From positions 7,944 through 71,943 of the forward strand of contig CAZRQD010000001.1 in NCBI GenBank assembly GCA_964602365.1: DNA of 64,000 bases. The letters run 5' to 3'. The position numbers and the translations under genes are program-made. Below, one piece after another: positions 3,768-25,945 of the stretch. Each line of letters starts with the position of its first letter. The first letter of the stretch is position 1. The notes under the pieces are model-generated. The model did no database searches, was not told where the DNA came from, and saw only the letters and a program-made list of their open reading frames with translations. Source of the DNA: an uncultured Acutalibacter sp. Lineage in GTDB: Bacteria > Bacillota > Clostridia > Oscillospirales > Acutalibacteraceae.

Positions 3768-5540
3768 TTAGGCGCAGTTGGCCTGCAGGGTTTTTAGCTC
3801 CTCCCTCAGCTCTTTGGGGAGTTTGTCGCCGAACTGCTTGTAGAATTCCTCTACGCCGGCGGCCTCTTTTGCCCACTTTGCCTTGTCGATGTCTAAGATC
3901 TTCTGCAGCTGCTCCTCTGTGAGGTCCAGCCCTTCAAGGTTGATGTCCTTGGCGTACGGGACATAGCCAATAGGCGTCTCCTTCGCGTCCACGGTACCCT
4001 CGCAGCGCTTGATGATCCACTCTATTACCCTGAGGTTGTCGCCGAAGCCCGGCCAGATGAAATTGCCGTTCTCGTCCACGCGGAACCAGTTGACGTTGAA
4101 GATCTTGGGGGCCTTGTCGCCAAGGACCTTGCCCATATCTATCCAGTGCTGGAAATAATCTCCCATATGGTATCCGCAGAACGGGAGCATGGCCATGGGG
4201 TCGCGCCTTACGACGCCGACCTGCCCGGCGGCGGCCGCTGTGGTCTCAGAGCCTGTGATGGAGCCGACAAATACGCCGTTGTTCCAGTTCTTGGACTGGT
4301 AGACCAGCGGAACGGTGTCGGGTCTGCGCCCGCCGAAGATTATCGCGGAGACCGGCACACCCTTGGGGTTCTCAAACTCGCTGGAGAGGCAGGGGCAGTT
4401 CTTAGTGGGTGCGGTGAAGCGGCTGTTGGGATGCGCCAGCTTGTTCCCTGCGGCGACATACTCCGGTCCGTTCACATGCTCGCCCTTCCACTCCTCGGCG
4501 TTCACGGGAGGATTCTTGTCCAAGCTCTCCCACCAGACAGTGTTGTCGTCCAAATTTCTGGCGACGTTTGTGAAGATGGCACCCTTCTGCGTGGAGATAA
4601 GCGCATTGGGGTTAGACTTCATGTTGGTTCCTGGCGCAACGCCAAAGAACCCGTTTTCAGGATTTATGGCATAGAGCCTGCCGTCCTCACCCTTGCGCAT
4701 CCAGGCGATGTCGTCGCCCACTGTCCAGACCTTATATCCCTTGGCCTTGTATCCCTCCGGGGGAATCATCATGGCCAGGTTGGTCTTGCCGCAGGCGGAC
4801 GGGAAGGCAGCGCAGACATATTTGATATCCCCGTCGGGCTTCTCCACGCCAAGGATCAGCATATGCTCGGCCATCCAGCCCTCGTTTTTAGCCTGATAGG
4901 AGGCTATGCGCAGGGCAAAGCACTTCTTGCCCAAAAGCACGTTCCCGCCGTAAGCGGAGTTTACGGAGATGATGGTATTGTCCTCCGGGAACTGGCAGAT
5001 CCACCGCTTCTCGGGGTCAACGTCGCATTTGGCGTGCAGGCCGCGGACCCAGTCGTCGCTGTCGCCAAGCACGTCTAGGACTTTCTGCCCAACCCTCGTC
5101 ATTATGGACATGTTCAGAACGACATAGATGGAGTCGGTGACCTCTATGCCTATCTTGGCGAGAGGAGAGCCAATCGGCCCCATGGAATAGGGAATAACAT
5201 ACATTGTGCGGCCGCTGTAGCTTCCGCGCGCGATATCGAAAAGCATCTTGTAGGCGGCGCCGGGTTCCATCCAGTGGTTGGTGGGACCTGCGTCCTCTTC
5301 CTTCCTAGAGCAGATGAGCGTGCGGTCTTCCACCCTTGCCACGTCGTTTGGCGCAGTGCGGTGATAGTAGCAGCCGGGGAGTTTCTCCTCGTTTAGCTTG
5401 ATCATCTCACCTGTCTCAACAGCTTCTTTCCTAAGCTCCTCAAGCTGTTCCTCGCTGCCGTCGATCCACATGACAGACGCGGGCTTGACAAGAGCTTTCA
5501 TCTCTTCCAGCCAGCTGAGGACTGTCTTGTTCTCAGTCAT
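3768..5540 (-). CDS. pckG: Phosphoenolpyruvate carboxykinase (GTP)
   Basis: FPSACGKTNLAM, VGDDIAW, INPENGFFGVAPG, HPNSRF, DPMAMLPFCGY, VNWFR motifs. Start moved to ATG 5540 (MTENK) behind AAAGGAG. Confidence 0.95.
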   Translation of the reverse strand: MTENKTVLSWLEEMKALVKPASVMWIDGSEEQLEELRKEAVETGEMIKLNEEKLPGCYYHRTAPNDVARVEDRTLICSRKEEDAGPTNHWMEPGAAYKMLFDIARGSYSGRTMYVIPYSMGPIGSPLAKIGIEVTDSIYVVLNMSIMTRVGQKVLDVLGDSDDWVRGLHAKCDVDPEKRWICQFPEDNTIISVNSAYGGNVLLGKKCFALRIASYQAKNEGWMAEHMLILGVEKPDGDIKYVCAAFPSACGKTNLAMMIPPEGYKAKGYKVWTVGDDIAWMRKGEDGRLYAINPENGFFGVAPGTNMKSNPNALISTQKGAIFTNVARNLDDNTVWWESLDKNPPVNAEEWKGEHVNGPEYVAAGNKLAHPNSRFTAPTKNCPCLSSEFENPKGVPVSAIIFGGRRPDTVPLVYQSKNWNNGVFVGSITGSETTAAAAGQVGVVRRDPMAMLPFCGYHMGDYFQHWIDMGKVLGDKAPKIFNVNWFRVDENGNFIWPGFGDNLRVIEWIIKRCEGTVDAKETPIGYVPYAKDINLEGLDLTEEQLQKILDIDKAKWAKEAAGVEEFYKQFGDKLPKELREELKTLQANCA

Positions 5541-5755
5541 CTTTATTAACTCCTTTCGCCCAAAGGGACTTAAAATTTGCAAAATGCCGGGCGACCTAGC
5601 CCACTCTTATTTTAGCATATGCGGGAAAAAATATCAATGAAGAATTTGTAAACGTGTAGTTTCTCAAAAACCGCCGGGTTTTTTAGAGAAAGTTTATTAT
5701 CGTATCTCTCCCCCCTGCGGTGTGGAGAGAGATATACTCAGAAAGCAAATGCTCC

Positions 5756-5782
5756 AAAAAGGCCTGGGTTTTTTGGGTTTTT
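5756..5782 (+). repeat. Solo or degenerate copy of the intergenic repeat family (leader segment)
   Basis: AAAAAGGCCTGGGTTTTTTGGGTTTTT is identical over 27 nt to 7954-7980 and over 18 nt to 25764-25781. Confidence 0.75.
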
Positions 5783-5809
5783 CCTTAAATTCTCGCAGTG
5801 AAATTTTCC

Positions 5810-6277
5810 CTATCTTCCAAAAAGATTCTTAAGCCAGTTTGCGAAGGCGTCTGCGCCGAAGACCGCCAGCATCACAAGAGAGATGAAGATCACTACCAAC
5901 AGTATCTCAAATACTATACGTTTTGGGTTTGTGCGGGTTTCCGGAACGTCCTCCCCCGTCTCCCGCTCCACCTCTTTAGAGACCTCCCGTGCGATCTCCT
6001 CTGCCCGCTCCATCTTATCATATCTCACAGAGATATTCTTGTCGGTCGGCATGGCAGTGCTGTCATAGGTAAAGCTGCCGGAGGGGACCTCCAGAGCCTC
6101 AAACTCAATGCCTTCCGCCGCGAACCTCTCGGAGAGAAGATTTGCGGTATAGAGGTCAGCGCGCTGTAAAAATACCATATCATCCCCCGAAAGCGGCCTT
6201 AGCCGGGGATTTCTGCAGTTGGGGCACCTCCTGGCACCGTCCTGCGCGATTCCCTTGCATCTCTCGCAGTAGAGCAT
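5810..6277 (-). CDS. Hypothetical protein: N-terminal zinc ribbon, DUF2007-like middle, C-terminal TM helix
   Basis: CERC...CPNC; ANLLSERFAAEGIEF; hydrophobic IVFEILLVVIFISLVMLAVFGA; RBS GAGGAGG. Confidence 0.75.
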   Translation of the reverse strand: MLYCERCKGIAQDGARRCPNCRNPRLRPLSGDDMVFLQRADLYTANLLSERFAAEGIEFEALEVPSGSFTYDSTAMPTDKNISVRYDKMERAEEIAREVSKEVERETGEDVPETRTNPKRIVFEILLVVIFISLVMLAVFGADAFANWLKNLFGR

Positions 6278-6315
6278 AAAAGCCTCCTCTATGCGTTAAA
6301 TTCACAGAAAGCGAA

Positions 6316-6345
6316 CCGCGGCAAGCAAATGAGGACTTGCCGCGG
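6316..6345 (-). terminator. Hairpin terminator after the tRNA-Ser pair
   Basis: CCGCGGCAAG-10nt-CTTGCCGCGG perfect 10-bp stem directly 3' of tRNA-Ser(GCT). Confidence 0.55.
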
Positions 6346-6350
6346 CAGCA

Positions 6351-6440
6351 TGGCGGAGAAGATGGGATTTGAACCCATGCGCCGGTTTCCCGACCTACTC
6401 CCTTAGCAGGGGAGCCCCTTCACCACTTGGGTACTTCTCC
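6351..6440 (-). tRNA. tRNA-Ser(GCT)
   Basis: Reverse complement GGAGAAGTACCCAAGTGG...CTCCC-CT-GCT-AA-GGGAG, long variable arm, GGTTCAAATCC, CCA; 90 nt. Confidence 0.97.
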
Positions 6441-6453
6441 CTGGCGAAGAAAT

Positions 6454-6542
6454 TGGCGGAGAGGAAGAGATTCGAACTCTTGGCTCCTTGCGGAGTCACT
6501 GGTTTTCAAGACCAGCTCCATAAACCACTCGGACACCTCTCC
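6454..6542 (-). tRNA. tRNA-Ser(TGA)
   Basis: Reverse complement GGAGAGGTGTCCGAGTGG...CTGGT-CT-TGA-AA-ACCAG, long variable arm, AGTTCGAATC, CCA; 89 nt. Confidence 0.97.
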
Positions 6543-6560
6543 ATATCCGGCGTGATTAGG

Positions 6561-6590
6561 ATTTTACCACATCCACCCCAACAATGTCAA
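6561..6590 (-). promoter_or_regulatory. sigmaA promoter of the tRNA-Ser pair
   Basis: TTGACA, 18 nt, extended -10 TGG-TAAAAT on the minus strand. Confidence 0.75.
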
Positions 6591-6627
6591 TAATTTTTTT
6601 GAGAAAGCTTTGAATTTGCCCCTTTTA

Positions 6628-6697
6628 GTAAATTCCCAAAGTAAGTTCCACAGTGGAATTTACTTTGAAAATTTACGAGATGTGAAATTTTCGTAAA
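6628..6697. promoter_or_regulatory. 49-bp near-perfect palindrome plus an overlapping second inverted repeat between divergent promoters
   Basis: GTAAATT-CC-CAAAGTAAGTTCCAC-A-GTGGAATTTACTTTG-AA-AATTTAC (6628-6676), then TTTACGAGA...TTTCGTAAA. Confidence 0.6.
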
Positions 6698-6723
6698 CAG
6701 TTGGGTTTAGGCGGTTTATACGG

Positions 6724-6752
6724 TTGCAGATGAACAAAAATTCTGGTATAAT
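6724..6752 (+). promoter_or_regulatory. sigmaA promoter of the aldo/keto reductase
   Basis: TTGCAG, 17 nt, extended -10 TGG-TATAAT. Confidence 0.7.
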
Positions 6753-6826
6753 AAAAATACACCGCAGGCTTTTGGGGCGTTGCCGCCGTGGAAAAAGCCC
6801 GCGGAAAATAATGACAGGGAGAGAAA

Positions 6827-7954
6827 ATGATGGAAAGGTATTTCGGAGAGAGTACGCCAAAACTGGGCTTTGGACTGATGAGGCTGCCAAAACTCAGCGA
6901 CGGGAGCATCGACGTCGAGCAGGTGAAAGAGATGGTAGATCTCTTTATGGGCGCCGGGCTTACGTATTTTGACACCGCCTACGTCTACGATAACGGCGAG
7001 AGCGAGAAGGCTGCAAAACTCGCGCTTGTTGACAGATACCCCAGGGAGAGCTATACCCTTGCCACGAAGCTCTGCGCGTGGATGGGAGATCCCACCGAGG
7101 AGGCGGCCAAGGGCCAGTTTTACACCAGCTTAGAGCGCACCGGCGCGGGATATTTCGACTATTACCTGCTCCACGCCATACAGCGCAACAACTATAAGGT
7201 ATACGACGATTTCCATATTTGGGATTTTGTCAAAGAGCAGAAGGAGAAAGGTCTCATAAAACATTACGGCTTCTCCTTCCATGCGGACCCGGAGCTTTTG
7301 GACGAGCTGCTGACCGCCCACCCCGACGTGGATTTTGTCCAGCTGCAGATTAACTATGCGGACTGGGATAATCCCGGCGTGCTTTCCAGGCAGTGCCTGG
7401 AGGTCGCCAAAAAACACGGCAAGTCAGTGACTGTCATGGAGCCGGTAAAGGGCGGCGCGCTTGCCAACCCCATAGAATCAGTGCAGAAGATATTCAAAGA
7501 GGCCAATCCAAAGGCATCCTGCGCCTCCTGGGCCATTCGCTTCGTCGCGAGCCAGGACAATATCATAACCGTCCTCTCCGGAATGTCTAACGTGGAGCAG
7601 ATGAAGGACAATATCTCCTATATGAAGGACTTCAAACCCATGACCGAGGAGGAGTTCAAGGTCATTGACAGGGCCAGGGCTGCCCTAAACGCAGACAAAT
7701 CCATCCCATGCACCGCCTGCCACTACTGTACGGAGAACTGCCCCATGCAGATACCGATCCCGGAGATCTTCCACGTGGTGAACCGCCAGGGGAATCAGCC
7801 CGCCTTCAGGGGGATAAGGGAGTACAATATCGCGACAGAGGGCAGAGGAAAGGCCTCCCAGTGCCTGCAGTGCGGCCAGTGCGAGGGTGCTTGCCCGCAG
7901 CATCTGCCAATTATCACTTACTTAAAAGAGGCAGCGGAGCGTTTCGAACAGTAA
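6827..7954 (+). CDS. Aldo/keto reductase with C-terminal 4Fe-4S dicluster domain
   Basis: LGFGLMRLP, YFDTAYVY, ATKL, YYLLH, GFSFH, VQLQINY, MEPVKGG; CTACHYCTENCP and CLQCGQCEGACP. Confidence 0.9.
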   Translation: MMERYFGESTPKLGFGLMRLPKLSDGSIDVEQVKEMVDLFMGAGLTYFDTAYVYDNGESEKAAKLALVDRYPRESYTLATKLCAWMGDPTEEAAKGQFYTSLERTGAGYFDYYLLHAIQRNNYKVYDDFHIWDFVKEQKEKGLIKHYGFSFHADPELLDELLTAHPDVDFVQLQINYADWDNPGVLSRQCLEVAKKHGKSVTVMEPVKGGALANPIESVQKIFKEANPKASCASWAIRFVASQDNIITVLSGMSNVEQMKDNISYMKDFKPMTEEEFKVIDRARAALNADKSIPCTACHYCTENCPMQIPIPEIFHVVNRQGNQPAFRGIREYNIATEGRGKASQCLQCGQCEGACPQHLPIITYLKEAAERFEQ

Positions 7955-8208
7955 AAAAGGCCTGGGTTTTTTGGGTTTTTTCATTGCCCACACCTAAAGC
8001 CGAGAGAAGTGAAAAAATCTGGGTTTTTCTCCCGCTAAAAAAGCGGGAGAAAACTTTTTGTGCGGCTTTACCTAAAGCCGAGAGAAGTGAAAAAGCCTGG
8101 GTTTTTCTCCGTCCAAAAAAGTAGGAGAAAACTTTCTCCACAGTTTCACCTCAAGCTGAGAGAAGTGAAAAAATCTCCCCGCAAAAAACGGGGAGATTTT
8201 TTCAGCTT
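7954..8208 (+). repeat. Tandem array of 78-bp hairpin-containing intergenic repeats (leader + about 3 units)
   Basis: CC(T)(A/C)AAGC(C/T)GAGAGAAGTGAAAAA recurs at 7993, 8071 and 8149 (period 78). Each unit carries a hairpin of the type GTTTTTCTCC-stem-A6 loop-GGAGAAAAC. The last unit forms a strong bidirectional terminator-like stem. Confidence 0.85.
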
Positions 8209-8407
8209 AGATTTTTATCCCAAGTTTTTTCGCGATCTCCTCGGGAGTCATCCCGGTCTCTTTCGCCTTTGTGACCACAGAGCGATAATTAATGGGACTT
8301 ACAATCTTCTTCTTCTGCTGCTCCAGTTTCTCAATCTGCTCTTTCTTTTTCGCGATTTTCTCATCGATTTCAGCAATGCGTTCCTCAACGCTTCTTCTTG
8401 TTGGCAC
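8207..8407 (-). CDS. Small basic hypothetical protein (coiled coil + short helical C-terminus)
   Basis: 66 aa MPTRRSVEERIAEIDEKIAKKKEQIEKLEQQKKK...GMTPEEIAKKLGIKI; GTG start, RBS AAAGGATG, own promoter. Confidence 0.75.
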   Translation of the reverse strand: MPTRRSVEERIAEIDEKIAKKKEQIEKLEQQKKKIVSPINYRSVVTKAKETGMTPEEIAKKLGIKI

Positions 8408-8439
8408 GAAAAATCATCCTTTCATATCAGTCTAGATAA

Positions 8440-8468
8440 ACTATACACTTTAGAATATTATCTGTCAA
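8440..8468 (-). promoter_or_regulatory. sigmaA promoter of the 66-aa gene
   Basis: TTGACA, 17 nt, TATAGT on the minus strand. Confidence 0.7.
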
Positions 8469-8605
8469 GACTTATTTTATTGTTTTTCGGAAATTATTTG
8501 TTTCTTACAATTGTTTTACGTGGGTATAATAGAGTAGAGGAAAGTAAAAAGCCGGTGAGAAGACGGTTTTATCTATCTTAAGCATTCTCATAAAGTTATA
8601 TGAGG

Positions 8606-11600
8606 TTATTTCTCCGCGGGTACAAAGACCACGTTTTGCTCTCCTAAAACTCCCCTAAGCGCTTTTAAGAGTGCGTCGTTCGCATCTGTCGCCATGCGCG
8701 CGGGGGCCTTTAGGAGTTTTCCCGTATCCTCAAAATAGAGATACAGCGGGTCGCGGCCGCCCTCAAAAATAGAGGTAAAACGCAGGGCTTTCTCATACTC
8801 CGCACAGTCCTTAGAGGGGAAGCGGAGGTAGAGTCCCGGGCGGGAATGTCTACTTGCGGGGGGAGTTTCTTTTCTTGCGGGATTAGCCGCCGCAGGTCTC
8901 TTCTTTGGGTCGGGAGGGGAGGCAACCTTCTCGCAGAGGAGTTCGGCACCCTTGTCCTCCGTAAAACTCAGCCGGCCGGAGATCTCGAGCTCTACCCCCT
9001 CGGAGAAGACCCCGCGGTACTGCTCTGCCACGGCTGGAAATACTAAAACGGATATGTCCCCAAAGAGATCCTCCAGCGTGAGGAAGGCCATTTTTGCCCC
9101 GGACTTCACATATTTCTCCCTCATCTCTACGATTATCCCCAAGACAGTGACCCTCTCCCCGTCGCGGTAGGGCCCGTTCCCGTCGGCGGCGCACTGCGCC
9201 AGCTCGTCTGTGCGGGCATAGGAGCCGCCATCGTAGAGCTCAGCGTAGGCCATCATGGGGTGGCCGGAGAGATACATTCCCGTGACGTCCCTCTCCCTCT
9301 GCAATAGGTCTGAGGGAGAGAACTCTGGCAATCTGTCAAGCGCCGGCTCGCCGTCTGCCCTAGTCTGCGGGGTGTCAAAAAAGCCCACCTGGCCGTCTAT
9401 ATTGTTCCGCTTTTCTCCGTCGATTTTCGACATCACGAGGTCAAGGGAGGCTATCATCTCGCGCCTGTTGTACCCAAGGCCGTCCAGCGCCCCGCAGTAG
9501 ATCAGACTCTCCAGCGCGCGGGAGTTGAGCTCTTTGCCCGCGGTTCTGCGGCAGAAGTTCCAGAAGGAGACGTACTTCCCGTTTTCCTCTCTCTCAGAGA
9601 TTATCCGAAGCAGCGCCGCGCGTCCAAGGTTTTTCACCGCCAAAAGCCCGTAGCGGATGCTATCGCCGGTAACTGTAAAGCCAAGATCGCTCTCGTTCAC
9701 ATGCGGTGGCAGGACGGGGATGCCCAGTCTCCTGCACTCCCCCATATACTCTACTGCCTTTTCCGCCCTGACACTGGAGAGCAGGGCGGCCATATATTCT
9801 TTGGGATAGTGGTGCTTCAGATAGGCGGTCTCATAGGCCAGCACCGCATAGCAGGCGGCGTGGGCCTTGTTGAAGGCGTAGGACGCGAAGTTCTCTATCT
9901 CCCTGAAGAGCTCCTCCGCGACATTCTCCGGTATGCCCCTTCTCAGGCAGCCGTCCACAGTGTAGTTTCCGCTTTCATCGCGCTCCCCGTAGATAAAGAC
10001 CTTCTTCTCCCGCTCCAGGACATCGCGCTTTTTCTTGGACATGGCCCTCCGCACGATATCGGCCCTGCCCATGGAATACCCCGCAAGTTCCCTGAAAATC
10101 TGCATGACCTGCTCCTGGTAGATTATGCACCCACTTGTGACCTCCAGGATTGGCCTTAGCTTCTCGTGAAGATATTTTGTGCGTTCAGGATGCTGTTTGT
10201 TTTCCAGATACTGCGGGATAAACTGCATTGGGCCTGGGCGGTAGAGAGAGATTACGGCGGTGATATCCTCTATGCTCCTGCTTCCCGCCTGCATGGTAAG
10301 CCTTCGCATGCCGGGAGATTCCAGCTGGAAGACGCCGGATGTCTCCCCGGCGGAGAGCATGTCGAAAACTCCCTGGTCATCATCTGGGACGGATTCTATA
10401 TTGAAGCCGGGTTCTGTCTTTCGCACGAGGTTCTGCGCCCTCTCTATAACCGAGAGATTTCTCAGCCCGAGAAAATCCATCTTGAGAAGACCCAAATCCG
10501 CTATCACATTCATCGTGAACTGCGCCACGACAGAGTCGTCGTTTTTGGCAAGCGGGACATAGTCCGTCACGGGACGGTCCGTTATAAGCACCCCCGCGGC
10601 GTGGGTGGAGGCATGCCGCGGCATACCCTCTAGCTTCATCGCCATCTCTATCAGATTCTTTATCTGCGGGTCCCCGTCCATCCTGTCCTTGAGGTCCTTA
10701 GAGCGCTCCAAGGCTTCGGCAATGGTTATATGCAGATCCATCGGCACCAGCTTAGCGACCTGGTCCACCTGGCTGTAAGGGATGCCCATGACCCTCCCCA
10801 CGTCCCGTATGGCCGCGCGCGCCGCCATCGTCCCGAAGGTCACTATCTGCGCCACATGGTCCTCCCCGTACTTGTCCATGACATAGCGGATTATCTCGTC
10901 CCTGCGCTCGTCTGAAAAATCTATGTCAAAATCGGGCATGCTCACGCGCTCGGCGTTTAGGAACCTCTCGAAGATCAGGTTGTAGCGGATGGGGTCCACG
11001 TTGGTTATGCCAACGCAGTAGGCGGCAAGGCTCCCCGCACCCGAACCCCTCCCCGGGCCCACGGGGATTCCCGCACTTCTCGCATATCTCACAAAATCCC
11101 AGACGATGAGGTAGTAGTTGACATATCCCATAGAGCTGATGACGGAGATCTCGTAATCCAGGCGCTCTTTCACGCTCTGTTCGGGGTTCTTGCCGTAGCG
11201 CCTCTCAAGCCCCTCATAGCAGAGCCTCTTAAAATAGCTCTCGCTGTCAGAGCCGTCCGCGGGCTCAAAGCGCGGGAGGCGTGTCTTGCCAAACTCTATC
11301 TCTACATTGCAGCGCTTCGCTATCCTCTCAGTATTATCTATTGCCTCGGGGTGGTCGGGGAAGAGAGCTCTCATCTCCTTCTCGCTCTTCAGATAGAACT
11401 CCTCTGTGGAGAAGCCCATTCCCGTCTCATCCTGCAGCGTCCTGCCGGTCTGTATGCAGAGCAGGACGTGGTGCATCTCATGGTCCTCTCTATCTATATA
11501 GTGGCAGTCATTTGTCGCTACAAGCGGGATTCCCGTCTCCTCGGAGATACTTACGATCTGCCTTAGGACCTCTTTCTCCTCCCTAAGTCCGTGGTTCTGT

Positions 11601-12121
11601 ATTTCCAAAAAATAATTTCCCCTGCCAAAGATGCGGTCATATCTCACCGCTGCAGACTTGGCCTCCTCATACTCCCCCCTCAGTATAAGCCTCGGCACCT
11701 CTCCCCCTAAGCAGGCAGAGAGCGCTATCAGACCCTCGTGGTACTGCTCCAGCAGCTCATAGTCCACGCGGGGACGGTTGTAAAATCCCTCTGTAAACCC
11801 CTTGGAGACCAGCATTATGAGGTTTTTATATCCCGTCTCGTTCTCGCAGAGCAGGACAAGGTGACGGCTCTCCCAGTCAAACTCATGGACCATGTCAAAG
11901 CGGGTCCTCGGTGCGACATAGACCTCACAGCCGATAATCGGCTTGATACCCCTCGCTTTGGCGGCCTTGTAAAAATCTATTACGCCGTACATGACGCCGT
12001 GGTCGGTTATAGCCATGGCGTCCTGCCCCATCTCCTTTGCCCTGTCCAGGACCCTTTCTATACGGCAGGCGCCGTCAAGGAGGCTGTATTCGGTATGCAG
12101 ATGCAGATGGCAAAACGCCAT
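8606..12121 (-). CDS. dnaE: DNA polymerase III alpha subunit
   Basis: PHP HLHLHTEYSLLDG, GPGRGSGAGS, MPDFDIDF, KMDFLGL, YAFNKAHA, OB fold; no intein apparent. Confidence 0.97.
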   Translation of the reverse strand: MAFCHLHLHTEYSLLDGACRIERVLDRAKEMGQDAMAITDHGVMYGVIDFYKAAKARGIKPIIGCEVYVAPRTRFDMVHEFDWESRHLVLLCENETGYKNLIMLVSKGFTEGFYNRPRVDYELLEQYHEGLIALSACLGGEVPRLILRGEYEEAKSAAVRYDRIFGRGNYFLEIQNHGLREEKEVLRQIVSISEETGIPLVATNDCHYIDREDHEMHHVLLCIQTGRTLQDETGMGFSTEEFYLKSEKEMRALFPDHPEAIDNTERIAKRCNVEIEFGKTRLPRFEPADGSDSESYFKRLCYEGLERRYGKNPEQSVKERLDYEISVISSMGYVNYYLIVWDFVRYARSAGIPVGPGRGSGAGSLAAYCVGITNVDPIRYNLIFERFLNAERVSMPDFDIDFSDERRDEIIRYVMDKYGEDHVAQIVTFGTMAARAAIRDVGRVMGIPYSQVDQVAKLVPMDLHITIAEALERSKDLKDRMDGDPQIKNLIEMAMKLEGMPRHASTHAAGVLITDRPVTDYVPLAKNDDSVVAQFTMNVIADLGLLKMDFLGLRNLSVIERAQNLVRKTEPGFNIESVPDDDQGVFDMLSAGETSGVFQLESPGMRRLTMQAGSRSIEDITAVISLYRPGPMQFIPQYLENKQHPERTKYLHEKLRPILEVTSGCIIYQEQVMQIFRELAGYSMGRADIVRRAMSKKKRDVLEREKKVFIYGERDESGNYTVDGCLRRGIPENVAEELFREIENFASYAFNKAHAACYAVLAYETAYLKHHYPKEYMAALLSSVRAEKAVEYMGECRRLGIPVLPPHVNESDLGFTVTGDSIRYGLLAVKNLGRAALLRIISEREENGKYVSFWNFCRRTAGKELNSRALESLIYCGALDGLGYNRREMIASLDLVMSKIDGEKRNNIDGQVGFFDTPQTRADGEPALDRLPEFSPSDLLQRERDVTGMYLSGHPMMAYAELYDGGSYARTDELAQCAADGNGPYRDGERVTVLGIIVEMREKYVKSGAKMAFLTLEDLFGDISVLVFPAVAEQYRGVFSEGVELEISGRLSFTEDKGAELLCEKVASPPDPKKRPAAANPARKETPPASRHSRPGLYLRFPSKDCAEYEKALRFTSIFEGGRDPLYLYFEDTGKLLKAPARMATDANDALLKALRGVLGEQNVVFVPAEK

Positions 12122-12159
12122 AAAAGCCGCCTCCTAAATCAAATTCTCCGTTCGTTTCC

Positions 12160-12188
12160 AGTCTACCACAGGCAGGGGCATTTGTCAA
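12160..12188 (-). promoter_or_regulatory. sigmaA promoter of dnaE
   Basis: TTGACA, 17 nt, TGG-TAGACT on the minus strand. Confidence 0.65.
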
Positions 12189-12204
12189 ATTCAAGGCAAA
12201 AGTC

Positions 12205-12234
12205 AGCGGAGCGGGCCGCCCGACCCGCTCCGCT
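12205..12234 (-). terminator. feo operon terminator
   Basis: AGCGGAGCGGG/CCCGCTCCGCT 11-bp stem followed on the minus strand by GACTTTT. Confidence 0.6.
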
Positions 12235-12271
12235 TTGGGATTAAAATGATGGGAGGAAAAATTCTTTTGTC

Positions 12272-12460
12272 TCACTTGCCGGGTCTGGTCTCTCTGGCGG
12301 CATGGCAGGAGGAACTCATCGGGCAGCCGGCACAACCGCCGGTGCAGCCCGGCGTCTTCCTCTGCTTTCTCAGCGAACGGATGCAGAAAAACACAAGCAG
12401 CGCAACCGCCAGCAGAACCAGAATACTTCCCCAGTTTTGAGAGAGCCAAACAAACATCAT
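12272..12460 (-). CDS. FeoB-associated Cys-rich membrane protein
   Basis: One TM helix then GCTGGCAGCPMSSSCH; directly after feoB; RBS AAAGGCGG. Confidence 0.85.
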   Translation of the reverse strand: MMFVWLSQNWGSILVLLAVALLVFFCIRSLRKQRKTPGCTGGCAGCPMSSSCHAARETRPGK

Positions 12461-12471
12461 GCCACCGCCTT

Positions 12472-14973
12472 TCAGACTTTCACGGATTTTGTCAGCTTTT
12501 CGGGCTCCTTATATGGCCTGACCAGAAGATAGATAATCGCAGCAAGCACCAGCGCGGCGAAGATAAGCCCAACCACGTTTACGCTTCCGGTAAACAGCAG
12601 CCCGAACTGGTTTATGATGAGTGCGATCGCATACGCGAAAGCGCATTGATATCCTATGGCGAAGAGAGTCCATTTAAGGCTGTTCATCTCTCTCTTTATC
12701 GCGCCCATGGCGGCGAAGCACGGCGCGCAGAGCAGGTTAAACGCCAAGAAGGAATAGCCGCTTACCATGGTAAAAGCCGCGCCGAGATTGCCGTATACTG
12801 TACCGGCGCCGCCGTAGAGGATTCCCATGGTACCGACGATGTTCTCTTTGGCGACAAGGCCAGTGATGGATGCCACGGCAGCCTGCCAGTTCCCCCAGCC
12901 AAGCGGGATGAAGATCCATGCGATCGCATTCCCTATCATGGCAAGGATGGAGTGGTCGATCTGCTCGTCTGTCAGCATGGTGAACGCGCCGTCCACAAAG
13001 CCAAAATAGGTCGTGAACCATACCAGTATGGTGGAGAGCAGGATTATGGTCCCAGCCTTCTTTATAAAGGACCAGCCGCGCTCCCACATGGAGCGGAGAA
13101 CATTCCCGGCCGTGGGCCAGTGATATGCGGGCAGCTCCATGACGAAGGGAGCGGGATCTCCCGCGAAAATCTTGGTCTTTTTCAGTATTATGCCCGATAC
13201 GATAATCGCACCGACGCCCAGGAAGTACGCGGACGGAGCTATCCACGGAGAGCCGCCGAATATTGCTCCGGCTATCATCGCGATAAAGGGGAGCTTCGCG
13301 CCGCAGGGGATAAAGGTGGTGGTCATGACGGTCATGCGGCGGTCTCTCTCGTTTTCTATCGTGCGGGAGGCCATAATTCCCGGAACGCCGCAGCCCGAGC
13401 CTATAAGCATGGGGATGAAGGATTTGCCGGAAAGCCCGAACTTCCTAAATATCCTGTCCATGACAAAGGCAACCCTCGCCATATATCCGCAGCTCTCAAG
13501 AAACGCCAGGAAGAAGAACAGTATGAACATCTGCGGGACAAACCCCAAAACGGCGCCGACACCGGCGACTATGCCGTCCAGAATCAGACCTTTTAGCCAT
13601 TCCGCACAGCCAATAGCGTCAAGGCCGCGCTCTATCAGCGGGGGAAGTCCGGGGACCCAAATACCGTAGCCGGCAGGGTCGGGCTCTGCCGCGCCGTAAG
13701 TCTCATAGACCCCAACCGCATTCTTTAAATCAGTCCCGGTAAATGTGAGCTCCTCTTCAAGCTGCGTATCCTCGTCAGTCATTACAAGGAATGTCGCAGA
13801 GTCGCTGTCAGAGAAATTCCCTGCATAGTCAGAGAGGGCGGAAACTGCCGCATCAGAGGAGAAGCTCTCGCTTTCCGTATCAAGAGCATCTACAACCGCT
13901 CCCGTATCCATGCCGTTTTCCTCTCCGTATGCGATGAAGGCGTTTACGGCGTTTTGGGCGTCGGCGAATTCACCGGCAGCCTCTTCATACGCTCCCCGCC
14001 CTATGCCCAGCAGGTACCAGCCGTCGCCGAAGACGCCGTCGTTCGCCCAGTCTGTGGCAACGGTTCCAACCGTTGTGACCGAAACGTAATATACCACGAA
14101 CATCACAATGGCGAAAATCGGCAGGGCGAGAATGCGGTTTGTCACAACCTTATCTATCTTGTCGGAGATTGTCAAGGCGCCCGCGGATTTCTTCCTGTAG
14201 CAGCCCTTTAGAATGGAGGCGATATACACGTACCTCTCGTTTGTGATAATGCTCTCGGCGTCGTCGTCCAGCTCTTCCTCCGCGGCCTTTATGTCCTGCT
14301 CTATATGCTTTAGAACTGACTCGTCAAGGTGAAGCTGCTCTATAACCTTGTCGTCGCGCTCGAATATCTTGATGGCGTACCAGCGCTGGCGCTCGGGCGG
14401 GGAATCATGCAGGGCCGCCTCCTCTATATGCGCTATGGCATGTTCCACCACGCCGGAGAAGGTGTGCATCGGCACGGTCTTATCCGTCTTGGCAGCCTCT
14501 ATCGCAGTCTCGGCCGCCTGCATCACTCCGGTACCCTTCAGGGCCGAAATCTCCAGCACCCGGCAGCCCAGCTCCCTTGAGAGTTCTGCAGTATTTATGC
14601 TGTCCCCGTTCTTTTTTACTATGTCCATCATATTGATGGCGACAACGACGGGAATTCCCAGCTCTGTCAGCTGCGTGGTGAGATAGAGGTTTCTCTCCAA
14701 GTTCGAGCCGTCCACGATATTGAGAATCACGTCCGGCCTCTCGTTTATCAGGTAGTTTCTCGCGATAACCTCCTCCAGGGTATAGGGGGAAAGGGAATAT
14801 ATGCCGGGCAGGTCCGTGATAGTGACTCCATCATGCTTTTTCAGCTTGCCCTCCTTCTTCTCCACGGTCACCCCTGGCCAGTTTCCAACAAACTGGTTGG
14901 AACCGGTAAGGGCATTGAACAGGGTGGTTTTGCCGCTGTTGGGGTTCCCCGCGAGGGCAATCTTCATTTCCAT
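12472..14973 (-). CDS. feoB: Ferrous iron transporter FeoB (long form with acidic loop insertion)
   Basis: GNPNSGKTT, GNWPGVTVEKKEG, DLPGIYSL, NMMD G4 motif, gate domains (PCGAKLP, LLCAPCFA). Confidence 0.97.
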   Translation of the reverse strand: MEMKIALAGNPNSGKTTLFNALTGSNQFVGNWPGVTVEKKEGKLKKHDGVTITDLPGIYSLSPYTLEEVIARNYLINERPDVILNIVDGSNLERNLYLTTQLTELGIPVVVAINMMDIVKKNGDSINTAELSRELGCRVLEISALKGTGVMQAAETAIEAAKTDKTVPMHTFSGVVEHAIAHIEEAALHDSPPERQRWYAIKIFERDDKVIEQLHLDESVLKHIEQDIKAAEEELDDDAESIITNERYVYIASILKGCYRKKSAGALTISDKIDKVVTNRILALPIFAIVMFVVYYVSVTTVGTVATDWANDGVFGDGWYLLGIGRGAYEEAAGEFADAQNAVNAFIAYGEENGMDTGAVVDALDTESESFSSDAAVSALSDYAGNFSDSDSATFLVMTDEDTQLEEELTFTGTDLKNAVGVYETYGAAEPDPAGYGIWVPGLPPLIERGLDAIGCAEWLKGLILDGIVAGVGAVLGFVPQMFILFFFLAFLESCGYMARVAFVMDRIFRKFGLSGKSFIPMLIGSGCGVPGIMASRTIENERDRRMTVMTTTFIPCGAKLPFIAMIAGAIFGGSPWIAPSAYFLGVGAIIVSGIILKKTKIFAGDPAPFVMELPAYHWPTAGNVLRSMWERGWSFIKKAGTIILLSTILVWFTTYFGFVDGAFTMLTDEQIDHSILAMIGNAIAWIFIPLGWGNWQAAVASITGLVAKENIVGTMGILYGGAGTVYGNLGAAFTMVSGYSFLAFNLLCAPCFAAMGAIKREMNSLKWTLFAIGYQCAFAYAIALIINQFGLLFTGSVNVVGLIFAALVLAAIIYLLVRPYKEPEKLTKSVKV
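12621..12632. repeat. HIP1-like palindrome, 1-mismatch copy GTGCGATCGCAT
   Basis: Inside feoB (Y-A-I-A-L); inner 10-mer TGCGATCGCA intact. Confidence 0.8.
12918..12929. repeat. HIP1-like palindrome ATGCGATCGCAT, copy 4
   Basis: Exact 12-mer inside feoB (N-A-I-A-W). Confidence 0.85.
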
Positions 14974-25765: not shown

Positions 25766-25921
25766 AAAGGCCTGGGTTTTTCTCCGCCCAAAAAAGAACA
25801 TGAAAACTTTTTGATCGTTCTCACCCAAAGCCGAGAGAAGTGAAAAAAGGTTTTTCTCCGTCTAAGAAAGTTCGAGAAAACTTTCTCCACAGCTTCACTT
25901 AAAGCCGAGCGAAGTAAAAAA
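25764..25921 (+). repeat. Second array of the intergenic repeat family (leader + about 2 units, 74-bp period)
   Basis: AAAAAGGCCTGGGTTTTTCTCC leader; AAAGCCGAG(A/C)GAAGT(G/A)AAAA units at 25824 and 25898; CTTTCTCCACAG(C/T)TTCA shared with 8132-8148. Confidence 0.85.
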
Positions 25922-25945
25922 CAAAACTGAAAGGCGGGGATATCT

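Follow-up and report, generated by a model that had tools for sequence, protein, structure and literature searches.

A hairpin repeat array between convergent genes of an uncultured Acutalibacter, probably one copy of a dispersed and lineage-restricted intergenic family

What is a tandem array of hairpins doing between the stop codon of one gene and the terminator that it shares with the next? In an uncultured Acutalibacter sp., an aldo-keto reductase gene on the plus strand and a 66-aa gene on the minus strand converge on such an array, within the 64,000-nucleotide stretch of contig CAZRQD010000001.1 that we analyzed (here, the window). Dispersed hairpin repeats of small size are familiar from Proteobacteria and streptococci; to our knowledge, they have hardly been catalogued in uncultured Clostridia. 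A first-pass annotation of the window had placed the array between convergent genes, and the two genes do flank both the array and a terminator. It had also proposed an uncharacterized clostridial family of REP/BOX-like elements, which our analysis supports, in that the family is REP/BOX-like in its behavior and a member of neither group. Our preferred reading, at a probability of about 0.7, is that the array belongs to a family of mosaic intergenic repeats that is non-autonomous, restricted to its lineage, and of the BOX/BIME/SPRITE type.

The reductase stop codon (TAA, 7952-7954) leads straight into an A-run, and the array follows. By Tandem Repeats Finder, 7991-8176 is a tandem repeat (period 78, 2.4 copies, 82% matches, 0 indels, score 260), and the three units annotated earlier at 7993, 8071, and 8149 with a period of 78 are in register, both by this result and by the sequence of 7954-8208. 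The true start of the array is earlier than those units, at a junction motif (module L, in which Tandem Repeats Finder reports a repeat of period 9 at 7963-7981) that is followed by a short H2-only unit, and the covariance model therefore gives three matches here (Table 1). The 22-mer GGCCTGGGTTTTTTGGGTTTTT of module L has nine exact occurrences in the genome, and the same arrangement of L and short unit is found on contigs C6, C21, C27, C33, and C65. What had been taken for a third unit is the final 25 nt of full unit 2. The conserved purine-rich block, described as a 24-mer, is present in all three of the units as first drawn (AAAGCCGAGAGAAGTGAAAAA in the first and second, CAAGCTGAGAGAAGTGAAAAA in the third), the quoted string being 20 nt long. 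The GGGTTTTTCTCC...A6...GGAGAAAAC hairpin is seen in the first and second, and the third contains only its conserved 3' arm; the variable inner stem that had been ascribed to this hairpin is mostly unpaired in other copies of the family.

Table 1. Genes, repeat modules, and predicted terminator at the reductase 3' end, with the other family copies in the window
Feature	Position	Strand	Basis
Aldo-keto reductase with C-terminal 4Fe-4S dicluster domain	6827..7954	+	ORF list; Pfam PF00248 (1.5e-46) and Fer4 domains
Junction module L: A-run, GGCC (7959-7962), and two TGGGTTTTT 9-mers (7963-7971, 7972-7980)	7954..7980	+	Sequence
Short unit: H2-only cassette with 3' end AAAGCCGAGAGAAGTGAAAAAATC	7981..8019	+	Covariance model 7960-8016, 34 bits, E 6.7e-5
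Full unit 1: TGGGTTTTT 9-mer, H1, CTTTTTG, H2	8020..8097	+	Covariance model 8017-8094, 78 bits
Full unit 2: 9-mer, weaker H1, CTCCACAGTTTCACCTC segment, block CAAGCTGAGAGAAGTGAAAAAA	8098..8173	+	Covariance model 8095-8174, 86 bits
Predicted bidirectional intrinsic terminator of the convergent genes	8166..8204		TGAAAAAATCTCCCCG-CAAAAAA-CGGGGAGATTTTTTCA; terminator-like scan
Convergent gene: 66-aa lysine-rich coiled-coil/HTH-like protein	8207..8407	-	ORF list; weak Sigma70_r4_2 match
D module and L motif without units	5677..5790	+	nhmmer with D model, C1:13620-13725, 96.5 bits
Second array in the window, two full units	25770..25923	+	Covariance model 25770-25849 (89.6 bits) and 25850-25923 (66.1 bits)

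The units differ in how well they fold. In full unit 1, H1 is a perfect hairpin (TTTTCTCCCGC-TAAAAAA-GCGGGAGAAAA, 8025-8053) followed by CTTTTTG, and it is listed by the terminator-like scan (12 pairs, 6 GC); H2 of the same unit consists of a local stem, CGGCTTT-ACCT-AAAGCCG, plus the conserved purine block. At -19.1 kcal/mol, this H1 is the most stable of the 20 full units, the other 19 ranging from -0.9 to -11.5 kcal/mol. The region as a whole is predicted to fold much more stably than shuffled sequence, at -102.8 kcal/mol on the plus strand (z = -8.3) and -94 kcal/mol on the minus strand (z = -5.5).

The first-pass annotation had read the last unit as one that was perfected into a long stem. 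This reading did not hold: only the 5' part is family sequence, and the hairpin at 8166-8204 is, as judged from its sequence, a native bidirectional terminator and not a perfected repeat unit. Its stem of 16 pairs, 7 of them GC, closes on a loop of 7 nt and is flanked by A6 at the 5' end and T6 at the 3' end, as expected of an intrinsic (Rho-independent) terminator. The hairpin scores as a strong terminator and lies 2 nt from the stop codon of the minus-strand gene (8207-8209). It is present as a single copy in the genome, and the A-tract on its 5' side and the final A-run of the array overlap. The minus-strand gene has a promoter-like site at 8468-8440 (TTGACA-17-TATAGT, 11/12).

Searching the whole genome for the repeat, as had been suggested, revealed a dispersed family, with 32 units found by nhmmer and 29 by the covariance model, over ∼16 loci on 14 contigs of the 1.43-Mb assembly. 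Thus, rather than a few copies that map to a known IS end or terminator family, there are ∼30 units with no Rfam match: across 5000-12500 of the window, only two tRNAs score above the Rfam gathering score, matches over the array reach 18-28 bits, far under the cut-offs, and the array on contig C27 has no match at E <= 0.1. The window itself contains two further copies. One has a GC-rich hairpin (TATCTCTCCCCCC...GGAGAGAGATA) and lies upstream of the PEPCK promoter; the other, a second array, begins in the TAA stop codon of a gene for an acidic microprotein and stops 25 nt short of the ATG of the downstream gene, which by Pfam encodes an acyltransferase. Unit 2 of that second array is the nearest relative of full unit 2 downstream of the reductase (85% identity). 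Units of different loci are 63-89% identical, and units that share an array are as a rule no more similar than that, the array on C27 (99%) being the exception. At least two arrays begin inside the stop codon of a gene on the same strand, and the start of at least two others is within ∼10 nt of such a codon; three or four end 15-30 nt upstream of a start codon, and such an array must be transcribed with the downstream gene. Several sit at contig ends, indicating that the assembly is interrupted by the repeats. Relative to the strand of the element, local GC skew is mixed (negative at ∼11 loci, positive at 6), and a replication-strand bias was rejected.

All copies draw on the same small set of modules. 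The junction motif consists of A5-6 GGCY and then one or two TGGGTTTTT 9-mers, and the other modules are a weak hairpin, H1, a hairpin with a conserved 3' end (AAGCCGAGAGAAGTGAAAAA), H2, and an optional GC-rich hairpin, D. These form three types of cassette: H1+H2 (∼72 nt), H2 only (∼40-50 nt; 39 nt in the window copy), and D (∼80 nt). L, short H2-only, H1+H2 (1-3 copies), and D occur in differing combinations over the ∼16 loci, and in every array the cassettes are chained head to tail on one strand, with no inverted doublets. Every cassette is preceded by the 9-mer and has a terminal A-run to which GGCY may be joined, so that the junction AAAAAAGGCY/TGGGTTTTT is regenerated between cassettes. 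The left end (GGCCTGGGTTTTT) and the right end (GAAGTGAAAAAA) have only A5/T5 in common in inverted orientation, and the flanking A-runs are indistinguishable from the element's own ends. CGTC is found in many H1 modules, only inside H1 beside the loop and not at the stem end.

How far does the family extend beyond this genome? The covariance model had no match in 57 other species of the genus, BLAST gave no real match in 200 genomes of the taxonomic family, and a 20-mer pattern found nothing real in 40 relatives. Across 185,579 species genomes, the same pattern had 28 matches, none of which extends past the conserved block with the unit model; the seven that were read in context all lie in gene-like sequence, and the 28 look like coding or chance coincidences. 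There was no family match in viral contigs or JGI metagenomes, and the conserved 20-mer is absent from the viral contigs. A phage origin was rejected, as the 22 viral matches to the L motif are coding sequence, with a reverse strand that encodes Lys/Pro-rich K-P-K-K-P-K repeats, on unrelated and much more AT-rich contigs. Searches for the exact reductase protein in other assemblies returned no record, and a literature search for the family sequences returned no relevant paper. By these comparisons, the family is confined to this one genome among those searched.

One unit (C49:1990-2068) lies in frame within a 391-aa ORF for a P-loop protein, and seven homologs in the genus are without exactly those 24 codons. 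The 72 inserted bases are found between ...TTTTC and GGGTTTTCC, and in the protein they correspond to 24 extra residues in the linker between two domains. In the closest homolog, the empty site matches the junction motif at 19/25 positions; outside the arrays, scores of at least 19/25 occur at only 6 of 2.85 million positions in the genome. The check for empty sites that had been proposed thus yielded one at the protein level, so at that locus the units are insertions. Taken together, the seven homologs without the insert and the junction-like empty site indicate that the elements are insertions aimed at junction-like sequence. As far as such comparisons go, it is at one locus that insertion is demonstrated, and at that same locus that the target already resembled the junction motif. 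This is a single empty site, compared against a distant homolog (51-57% protein identity), so the breakpoints are ambiguous and could bound either 72 nt between the 9-mers or 81 nt at the A-run. Among the relatives, there was no usable intergenic empty site, the nucleotide sequences being too diverged; the reductase ortholog of the nearest species has a different gene context, and the DnaE neighbors are not syntenic in relatives, with proteins only 54-60% identical.

Several known systems resemble the family in part. The BOX elements of Streptococcus pneumoniae and S. suis have the structure boxA-boxB(n)-boxC (Croucher et al. 2011, PMC3049150). Both BOX and the family are built of modules, an internal one being chained head to tail in varying copy number and further ones being optional, and both measure at most a few hundred bp, are intergenic but sometimes lie within genes, have predicted stem-loops, are restricted to a narrow lineage, and have no transposase of their own. 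Unlike the family, with its A5/T5, BOX has terminal inverted repeats in boxA and boxC; unlike BOX, the family has a double-hairpin unit, A/T-run flanks, and a 19-nt junction motif, and its ∼30 units are in one Clostridia species as opposed to Streptococcus. The two are set apart here by their descriptions, and base composition and host lineage also differ. As in SPRITE elements, an A-run/T-run is the only terminal inverted repeat of the family, and the two may also have in common a terminator-like hairpin with a U-rich tail, a position very near the 3' ends of coding sequences, and co-option as terminators. However, SPRITE is a single element with an 18-bp duplex, whereas the family forms chained, multi-module arrays in which most H1 hairpins are too degenerate to terminate; H1 with CUUUUU is terminator-like in unit 1 of the window, and most H1 copies fold weakly. 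Rickettsia palindromic elements (RPE), reportedly described by Ogata et al. in 2000, are said to be in-frame hairpin repeats in protein genes that are tolerated as peptide. The in-frame insertion of 24 residues is similar, but only 1 of the ∼16 loci of the family lies inside a gene, and the two kinds of repeat are unrelated in sequence and belong to different bacterial groups.

The REP/BIME/REPIN repeats of Proteobacteria, which go with RAYT, are known to influence both termination and the stability of mRNAs (Di Nocera et al. 2013, PMC3733652). They resemble the family in being extragenic hairpin repeats that form mosaics in 3' UTRs and intercistronic gaps. In contrast to REP, of 20-40 nt, the units here are 78-81 nt with two hairpins, and every one is in direct orientation, where REP units alternate or are inverted; their stem ends lack a GTAG/CGTC tag, and no RAYT gene was found. 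Ssn-related motifs (NTS/SRM), which are cut by the GIY-YIG ssDNA nucleases Ssn (PMC11893778), are also abundant hairpin repeats, and the CGTC of many H1 modules recalls them. We rejected an Ssn/SRM system: the search motif HGTCWY...RNCYNB is not enriched (5 matches versus 7-15 in shuffles), none of its matches lies inside the elements, and there is no single-domain Ssn gene (about 95 aa), the sole GIY-YIG domain in the genome being in a 631-aa, UvrC-sized ORF.

If the array is a copy of a mosaic BOX/BIME/SPRITE-type family, then the L motif, one short cassette, and two full cassettes would have come to lie between the post-stop A-run and the terminator stem, and their removal would leave TAA-AAAA-TCTCCCCG...CGGGGAGATTTTTT, a normal compact 3' end. 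Spread may occur by recombination or copy-choice at the junction motif or by a site-specific enzyme; because HUH, TnpB, Ssn, reverse transcriptase, and IS110 enzymes were found to be absent, we infer that it does not depend on them. The array would be transcribed as the 3' UTR of the reductase mRNA, with the perfect H1 and U-run of unit 1 probably serving as an additional intrinsic terminator ahead of the main one and as a barrier to 3' exonucleases, and the hairpin behind the array would be the real terminator for the two genes. Overall, the family has the look of selfish or neutral DNA that is tolerated, and not of a conserved RNA.

It is conceivable, though we think it rather unlikely, that the units are non-coding cassettes with site-specific integration at the ∼25-nt junction motif (A-run, GGCC, and two TGGGTTTTT) and a transposase-independent spread. 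Integration would then be carried out by a recombinase or by homology-guided copy-choice without a transposase. The junction motif resembles the A-run/GC/T-run of a terminator and by chance spells codons for E-K-P-G-L-F-G-F, which would steer the cassettes to gene 3' ends and occasionally into ORFs.

Somewhat more doubtful is a functional cis-acting RNA module, by which the units would be selected in mRNAs (3' UTRs and intercistronic spacers) and would tune transcript stability, cause partial termination, or govern translation of the gene downstream, for instance by sequestering the purine-rich GAGAGAAGUGAAAAA tract within H2. The strong predicted folding at the locus fits such a role, as do the perfect H1 of unit 1 with its U-run, the three or four arrays that end shortly before a start codon, and the sense orientation of 6/7 arrays between co-oriented genes, which is not significant (about p = 0.06). 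However, there is no covariation (paired cells, 70.2% versus 70.1% in shuffles), the two named structures are no richer than shuffles in paired cells or compensatory changes, RNAalifold does not recover a consensus structure, and the inner H1 stem is unpaired in most copies. The genes beside the arrays are unrelated housekeeping genes with no common function, one unit is within a coding sequence, and the family is absent from all other species searched, all of which argue against selection as RNA.

A true REP/REPIN or IS200/IS605-type system, that is, ssDNA elements moved by a Y1 HUH transposase that is missing from the assembly, is improbable. It would account for the imperfect hairpins with conserved mismatches, for the lack of long terminal inverted repeats and of a clear target duplication, and for orientation-specific insertion beside a defined sequence, and in an assembly of 80 contigs, from which mobile genes are often lost, a mobilizing gene may be unassembled. 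Yet a RAYT or IS200/IS605 TnpA, to which the first-pass annotation had looked as the mobilizer, finds no backing: the 1.43-Mb assembly has no PF01797 match, versus 6/14 control genomes with one, and TnpB is below the cut-off only. The stem ends carry no GTAG or CGTC tag, all units are direct, with no inverted doublets, and local GC skew reveals no consistent strand preference. Reverse transcriptase and IS110 are likewise absent from the assembly or below the cut-off. A DDE-derived MITE is not supported, since its terminal inverted repeats would amount to A5/T5 only and self-BLAST of the assembly shows no IS-sized repeats. Finally, a tandem duplication confined to the terminator region, or an artifact of assembly, without a dispersed family has next to no probability and is refuted by the genome-wide census: the array does abut the terminator, GAAAAAATC is found at both 8011-8019 and 8167-8175, and the C27 array shows recent local duplication (99% identity), but the modules are common to ∼16 loci on 14 contigs, the units of the window array are 81% identical and equally close to units elsewhere, and one unit is in a gene with empty-site homologs.

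The family is an undescribed version of an ordinary kind of hairpin repeat. In uncultured Clostridia, such repeats interrupt assemblies, enlarge the apparent intergenic space, and can be misread as regulatory RNAs or CRISPR-like arrays. For the annotation of the window, this means that the real terminator would be the hairpin at 8166-8204 and that the rest of the reductase 3' region would be passenger repeat DNA. The family also offers a junction motif that can be defined, one in-frame insertion for which relatives have the empty site, and a target that was junction-like beforehand. With these three features, it becomes somewhat easier to approach a long-standing question, namely how repeats without a transposase, BOX among them, are spread.

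The hairpin array downstream of the reductase gene belongs to a repeat family that is dispersed through this genome (assembly of 1.43 Mb, 80 contigs, 52.6% GC). Its conserved 21-mer, the GGGTTTTTCTCC motif, and the leader GGCCTGGGTTTTTTGGGTTTTT each recur on many contigs; an nhmmer profile identifies 32 units (single repeat copies), and a covariance model trained on 20 full units identifies 29. The roughly 16 loci are spread over 14 contigs, which supports the first-pass annotation's proposal of an uncharacterized REP/BOX-like family. Identity between units from different loci is 63-89%, with recent local duplication on contig C27 only. Six loci lie at contig ends, and the end of contig C21 overlaps the start of C64 within an array: C21:1-54 (minus strand) equals C64:1-54 (plus strand), comprising the last repeat unit and the beginning of a gene for a small membrane protein. 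The two are therefore neighboring contigs with the assembly broken inside the array, i.e., the repeats break assembly.

Read side by side, all loci share a common grammar: the 9-mer TGGGTTTTT, then a cassette of one of three kinds (see the table), with an A-run at the cassette end, usually with GGCY. Therefore, the junction AAAAAAGGCY/TGGGTTTTT recurs between cassettes. The junction motif, L (an A-run, GGCC, and two 9-mers), is solitary at C4 and at window 5761-5787. Within arrays, all units run head to tail; at array ends, the inverted orientation shares A5/T5 only. Two isolated L-like sites outside arrays, C24:17054 (22/25 matches to the junction motif) and C31:1699 (19/25), may be unoccupied targets or relics. 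A weak A5CC-GCCG-GGT6 hairpin at window 5660-5680, immediately before the D module and upstream of a PEPCK promoter-like site (5637-5609), resembles either a small bidirectional terminator or an L-like target. Two minus-strand tRNA genes (6354-6440 and 6457-6542; Rfam RF00005, 61.5 and 57.4 bits) separate the D+L copy from the reductase gene.

Repeat loci and neighboring features, with the cassette types and the copies of a second repeat
Feature	Location	Strand	Length and composition	Basis
D+L copy	window 5677-5790
Aldo-keto reductase with Fe-S domain	window 6827-7954	+
TAA stop and A-run	5' start of array locus	+		sequence
GGCC and two 9-mers	window 7959-7980	+		sequence
Short H2-only cassette	window 7981-8019	+	39 nt	sequence
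Full unit 1	window 8020-8097	+		sequence
Full unit 2	window 8098-8173	+		sequence
Putative terminator hairpin	window 8166-8204, 3' end of array locus			sequence, BLAST, terminator features
66-aa coiled-coil/HTH-like gene	window 8207-8407	-		near-consensus promoter
Second array	window 25770-25923
Cassette H1+H2			~72 nt; H1 = TTTTTCTCCGTCC-AAGAAA-GTNCGAGAAAAC, H2 = TTTTTCATCRCTCTC-ACCCMAAGCC-GAGAGAAGTGAAAAA
Cassette H2 only			~40-50 nt
Cassette D			~80 nt; 15-bp GC-rich hairpin, 7-8 copies
Second repeat	C5:77-351, C36:4214-4488, C16:7-313, C42:11375-11670, C28:1-257, C17:29723-29974, C5:35160-35385

On re-reading, the sequence at 7954-8208 matches its initial description, and Tandem Repeats Finder assigns 7991-8176 a period of 78, with 2.4 copies that match at 82% and contain no indels. 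The last unit had been described as perfected into a long stem; we instead find a hairpin with no family copy elsewhere in the genome. When 8149-8215 was compared with the genome by BLAST, only the conserved H2 arm (its leading 25 nt) recurred. Because the hairpin is unique in the genome, has terminator-like features (a stem of 16 pairs, 7 of them GC, with an A6 tract 5' and a T6 tract 3'), and is separated by 2 nt from the stop codon that closes the minus-strand 66-aa gene, its sequence identifies it as the probable native bidirectional terminator of the convergent gene pair. Removing the array would leave TAA-AAAA-TCTCCCCG...CGGGGAGATTTTTT, a normal compact 3' end. The small, lysine-rich 66-aa ORF (8207-8470 region) has a coiled-coil N-terminal part, an HTH-like C terminus (MTPEEIAKKLGI), and a near-consensus promoter (TTGACA-17-TATAGT); dnaE lies beyond it, and no orthologue was found beside dnaE in five relatives.

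The array stretch folds far better than shuffled sequence (z = -8.3 for the plus strand and -5.5 for the minus). H1 of unit 1 is predicted to form a perfect stem of 11-12 bp (-19.1 kcal/mol) followed by CUUUUUG; values for the other 19 full units are -0.9 to -11.5 kcal/mol, which sets unit 1 apart from the rest of the family. Most family hairpins are degenerate. Does the family encode a selected RNA? RNAalifold on 20 units gave no consensus structure, H1+H2 cells pair in 70.2% of cases versus 70.1% in column shuffles, an alternative H2 pairing was no better than the first, and the inner H1 is unpaired in 11-16 of the 20 units. Neighboring genes share nothing (KsgA, acyltransferase, AraC regulator, MGDG synthase, NrdR, esterase), and GC skew gave no replication-strand rule. 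Where arrays lie between co-oriented genes, six of the seven are in sense orientation, a bias that is suggestive only.

Intergenic synteny with relatives is lost. One unit lies in frame within a 391-aa ORF (C49:1285-2460, minus strand) that has full-length homologues in the genus; the protein is two-domain P-loop and kinase-like, with no Pfam match. The unit contributes 24 extra residues to the interdomain linker, and in an eight-protein alignment all seven homologues have a clean gap of exactly 24 residues there. The protein reads ...LEKRPGFF-SVQKGAGELPLQLHPKPREVKKRP-GFSKES..., compared to ...GEKPGLF-GFSEDA... in the closest homologue; in the DNA, the insert is 72 bases (TCCGTTC...GAAGTGAAAAAAAGGCCT), preceded by ...TTTTC and followed by GGGTTTTCC. 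The closest homologue's empty site, GAAAAGCCGGGACTTTTCGGGTTTT, matches the L motif at 19/25 positions, a score reached outside arrays at only 6 of 2.85 million positions in our genome. Given this gap and the L-like empty site, the C49 unit is a derived insertion into a site that already resembled the junction motif, although its exact breakpoints are ambiguous because an 18-nt direct repeat flanks the unit. Since the target was already junction-like, integration directed by homology or by site seems more likely than random transposition. The intergenic arrays fit this insertion picture: each extends from an A-run 0-10 nt past a stop codon to another A-run, and its removal leaves a natural stop-spacer-terminator or stop-SD-ATG junction.

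The RAYT or IS200/IS605 transposase suggested by the first-pass annotation left no sign, with no Y1 HUH transposase in the assembly. The same assembly contains TnpB below cut-off only, no reverse transcriptase, no IS110 above cut-off, no enrichment of the SRM motif of the Ssn system, and no IS-sized repeats by self-BLAST; its sole GIY-YIG domain sits in a UvrC-sized ORF.

The covariance model has no match in 57 other species of the genus, BLAST of a 231-nt array against 200 genomes of the taxonomic family returned only chance matches of 22-30 nt, and 300 genomes of the order contain no copy of the D hairpin. The conserved 20-mer pattern found nothing real in 40 relatives. Across 185,579 species (one genome each) it gave 28 matches, all seemingly coding or chance: the unit model extends none of them past the conserved block, and all seven read in context lie in gene-like sequence. 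The conserved block has no match in viral contigs or JGI metagenomes. In 22 viral contigs (IMG/VR), the L motif GGCYTGGGTTTTTTGGGTTTT is part of coding sequence, with Lys/Pro-rich K-P-K-K-P-K repeats on the reverse strand; these matches are coincidence, unrelated to the repeat element. DnaE identity among genus members is only 54-60%, i.e., the "genus" is deep, and absence from relatives therefore places the family's origin or expansion later than a fairly old split.

A second dispersed repeat, AT-rich, ~280 nt long, and unrelated to the first, occurs elsewhere in the genome, outside the window; its copies are 82-93% identical, and it has no Rfam match. Every copy stops just upstream of the ATG (ATGGCA/ATGCCA) of seemingly paralogous genes, and its hairpins are GTGTCC-ATTTCA-GGGCAC and CCCC...GGGGGG.

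The in-frame copy is reminiscent of Rickettsia palindromic elements, and the family resembles REP/BIME mosaics. In behavior it is closest to pneumococcal BOX, likewise modular with internal copies that vary in number, and to SPRITE, a terminator-like repeat with A/T-run ends that adjoins gene 3' ends (PMC3049150). It lacks the sequence features checked as hallmarks of REP/REPIN, BOX, or SRM. These comparisons support a new family of an already known, REP/BOX-like kind, in which the noteworthy point is the in-frame insertion into a junction-like target.
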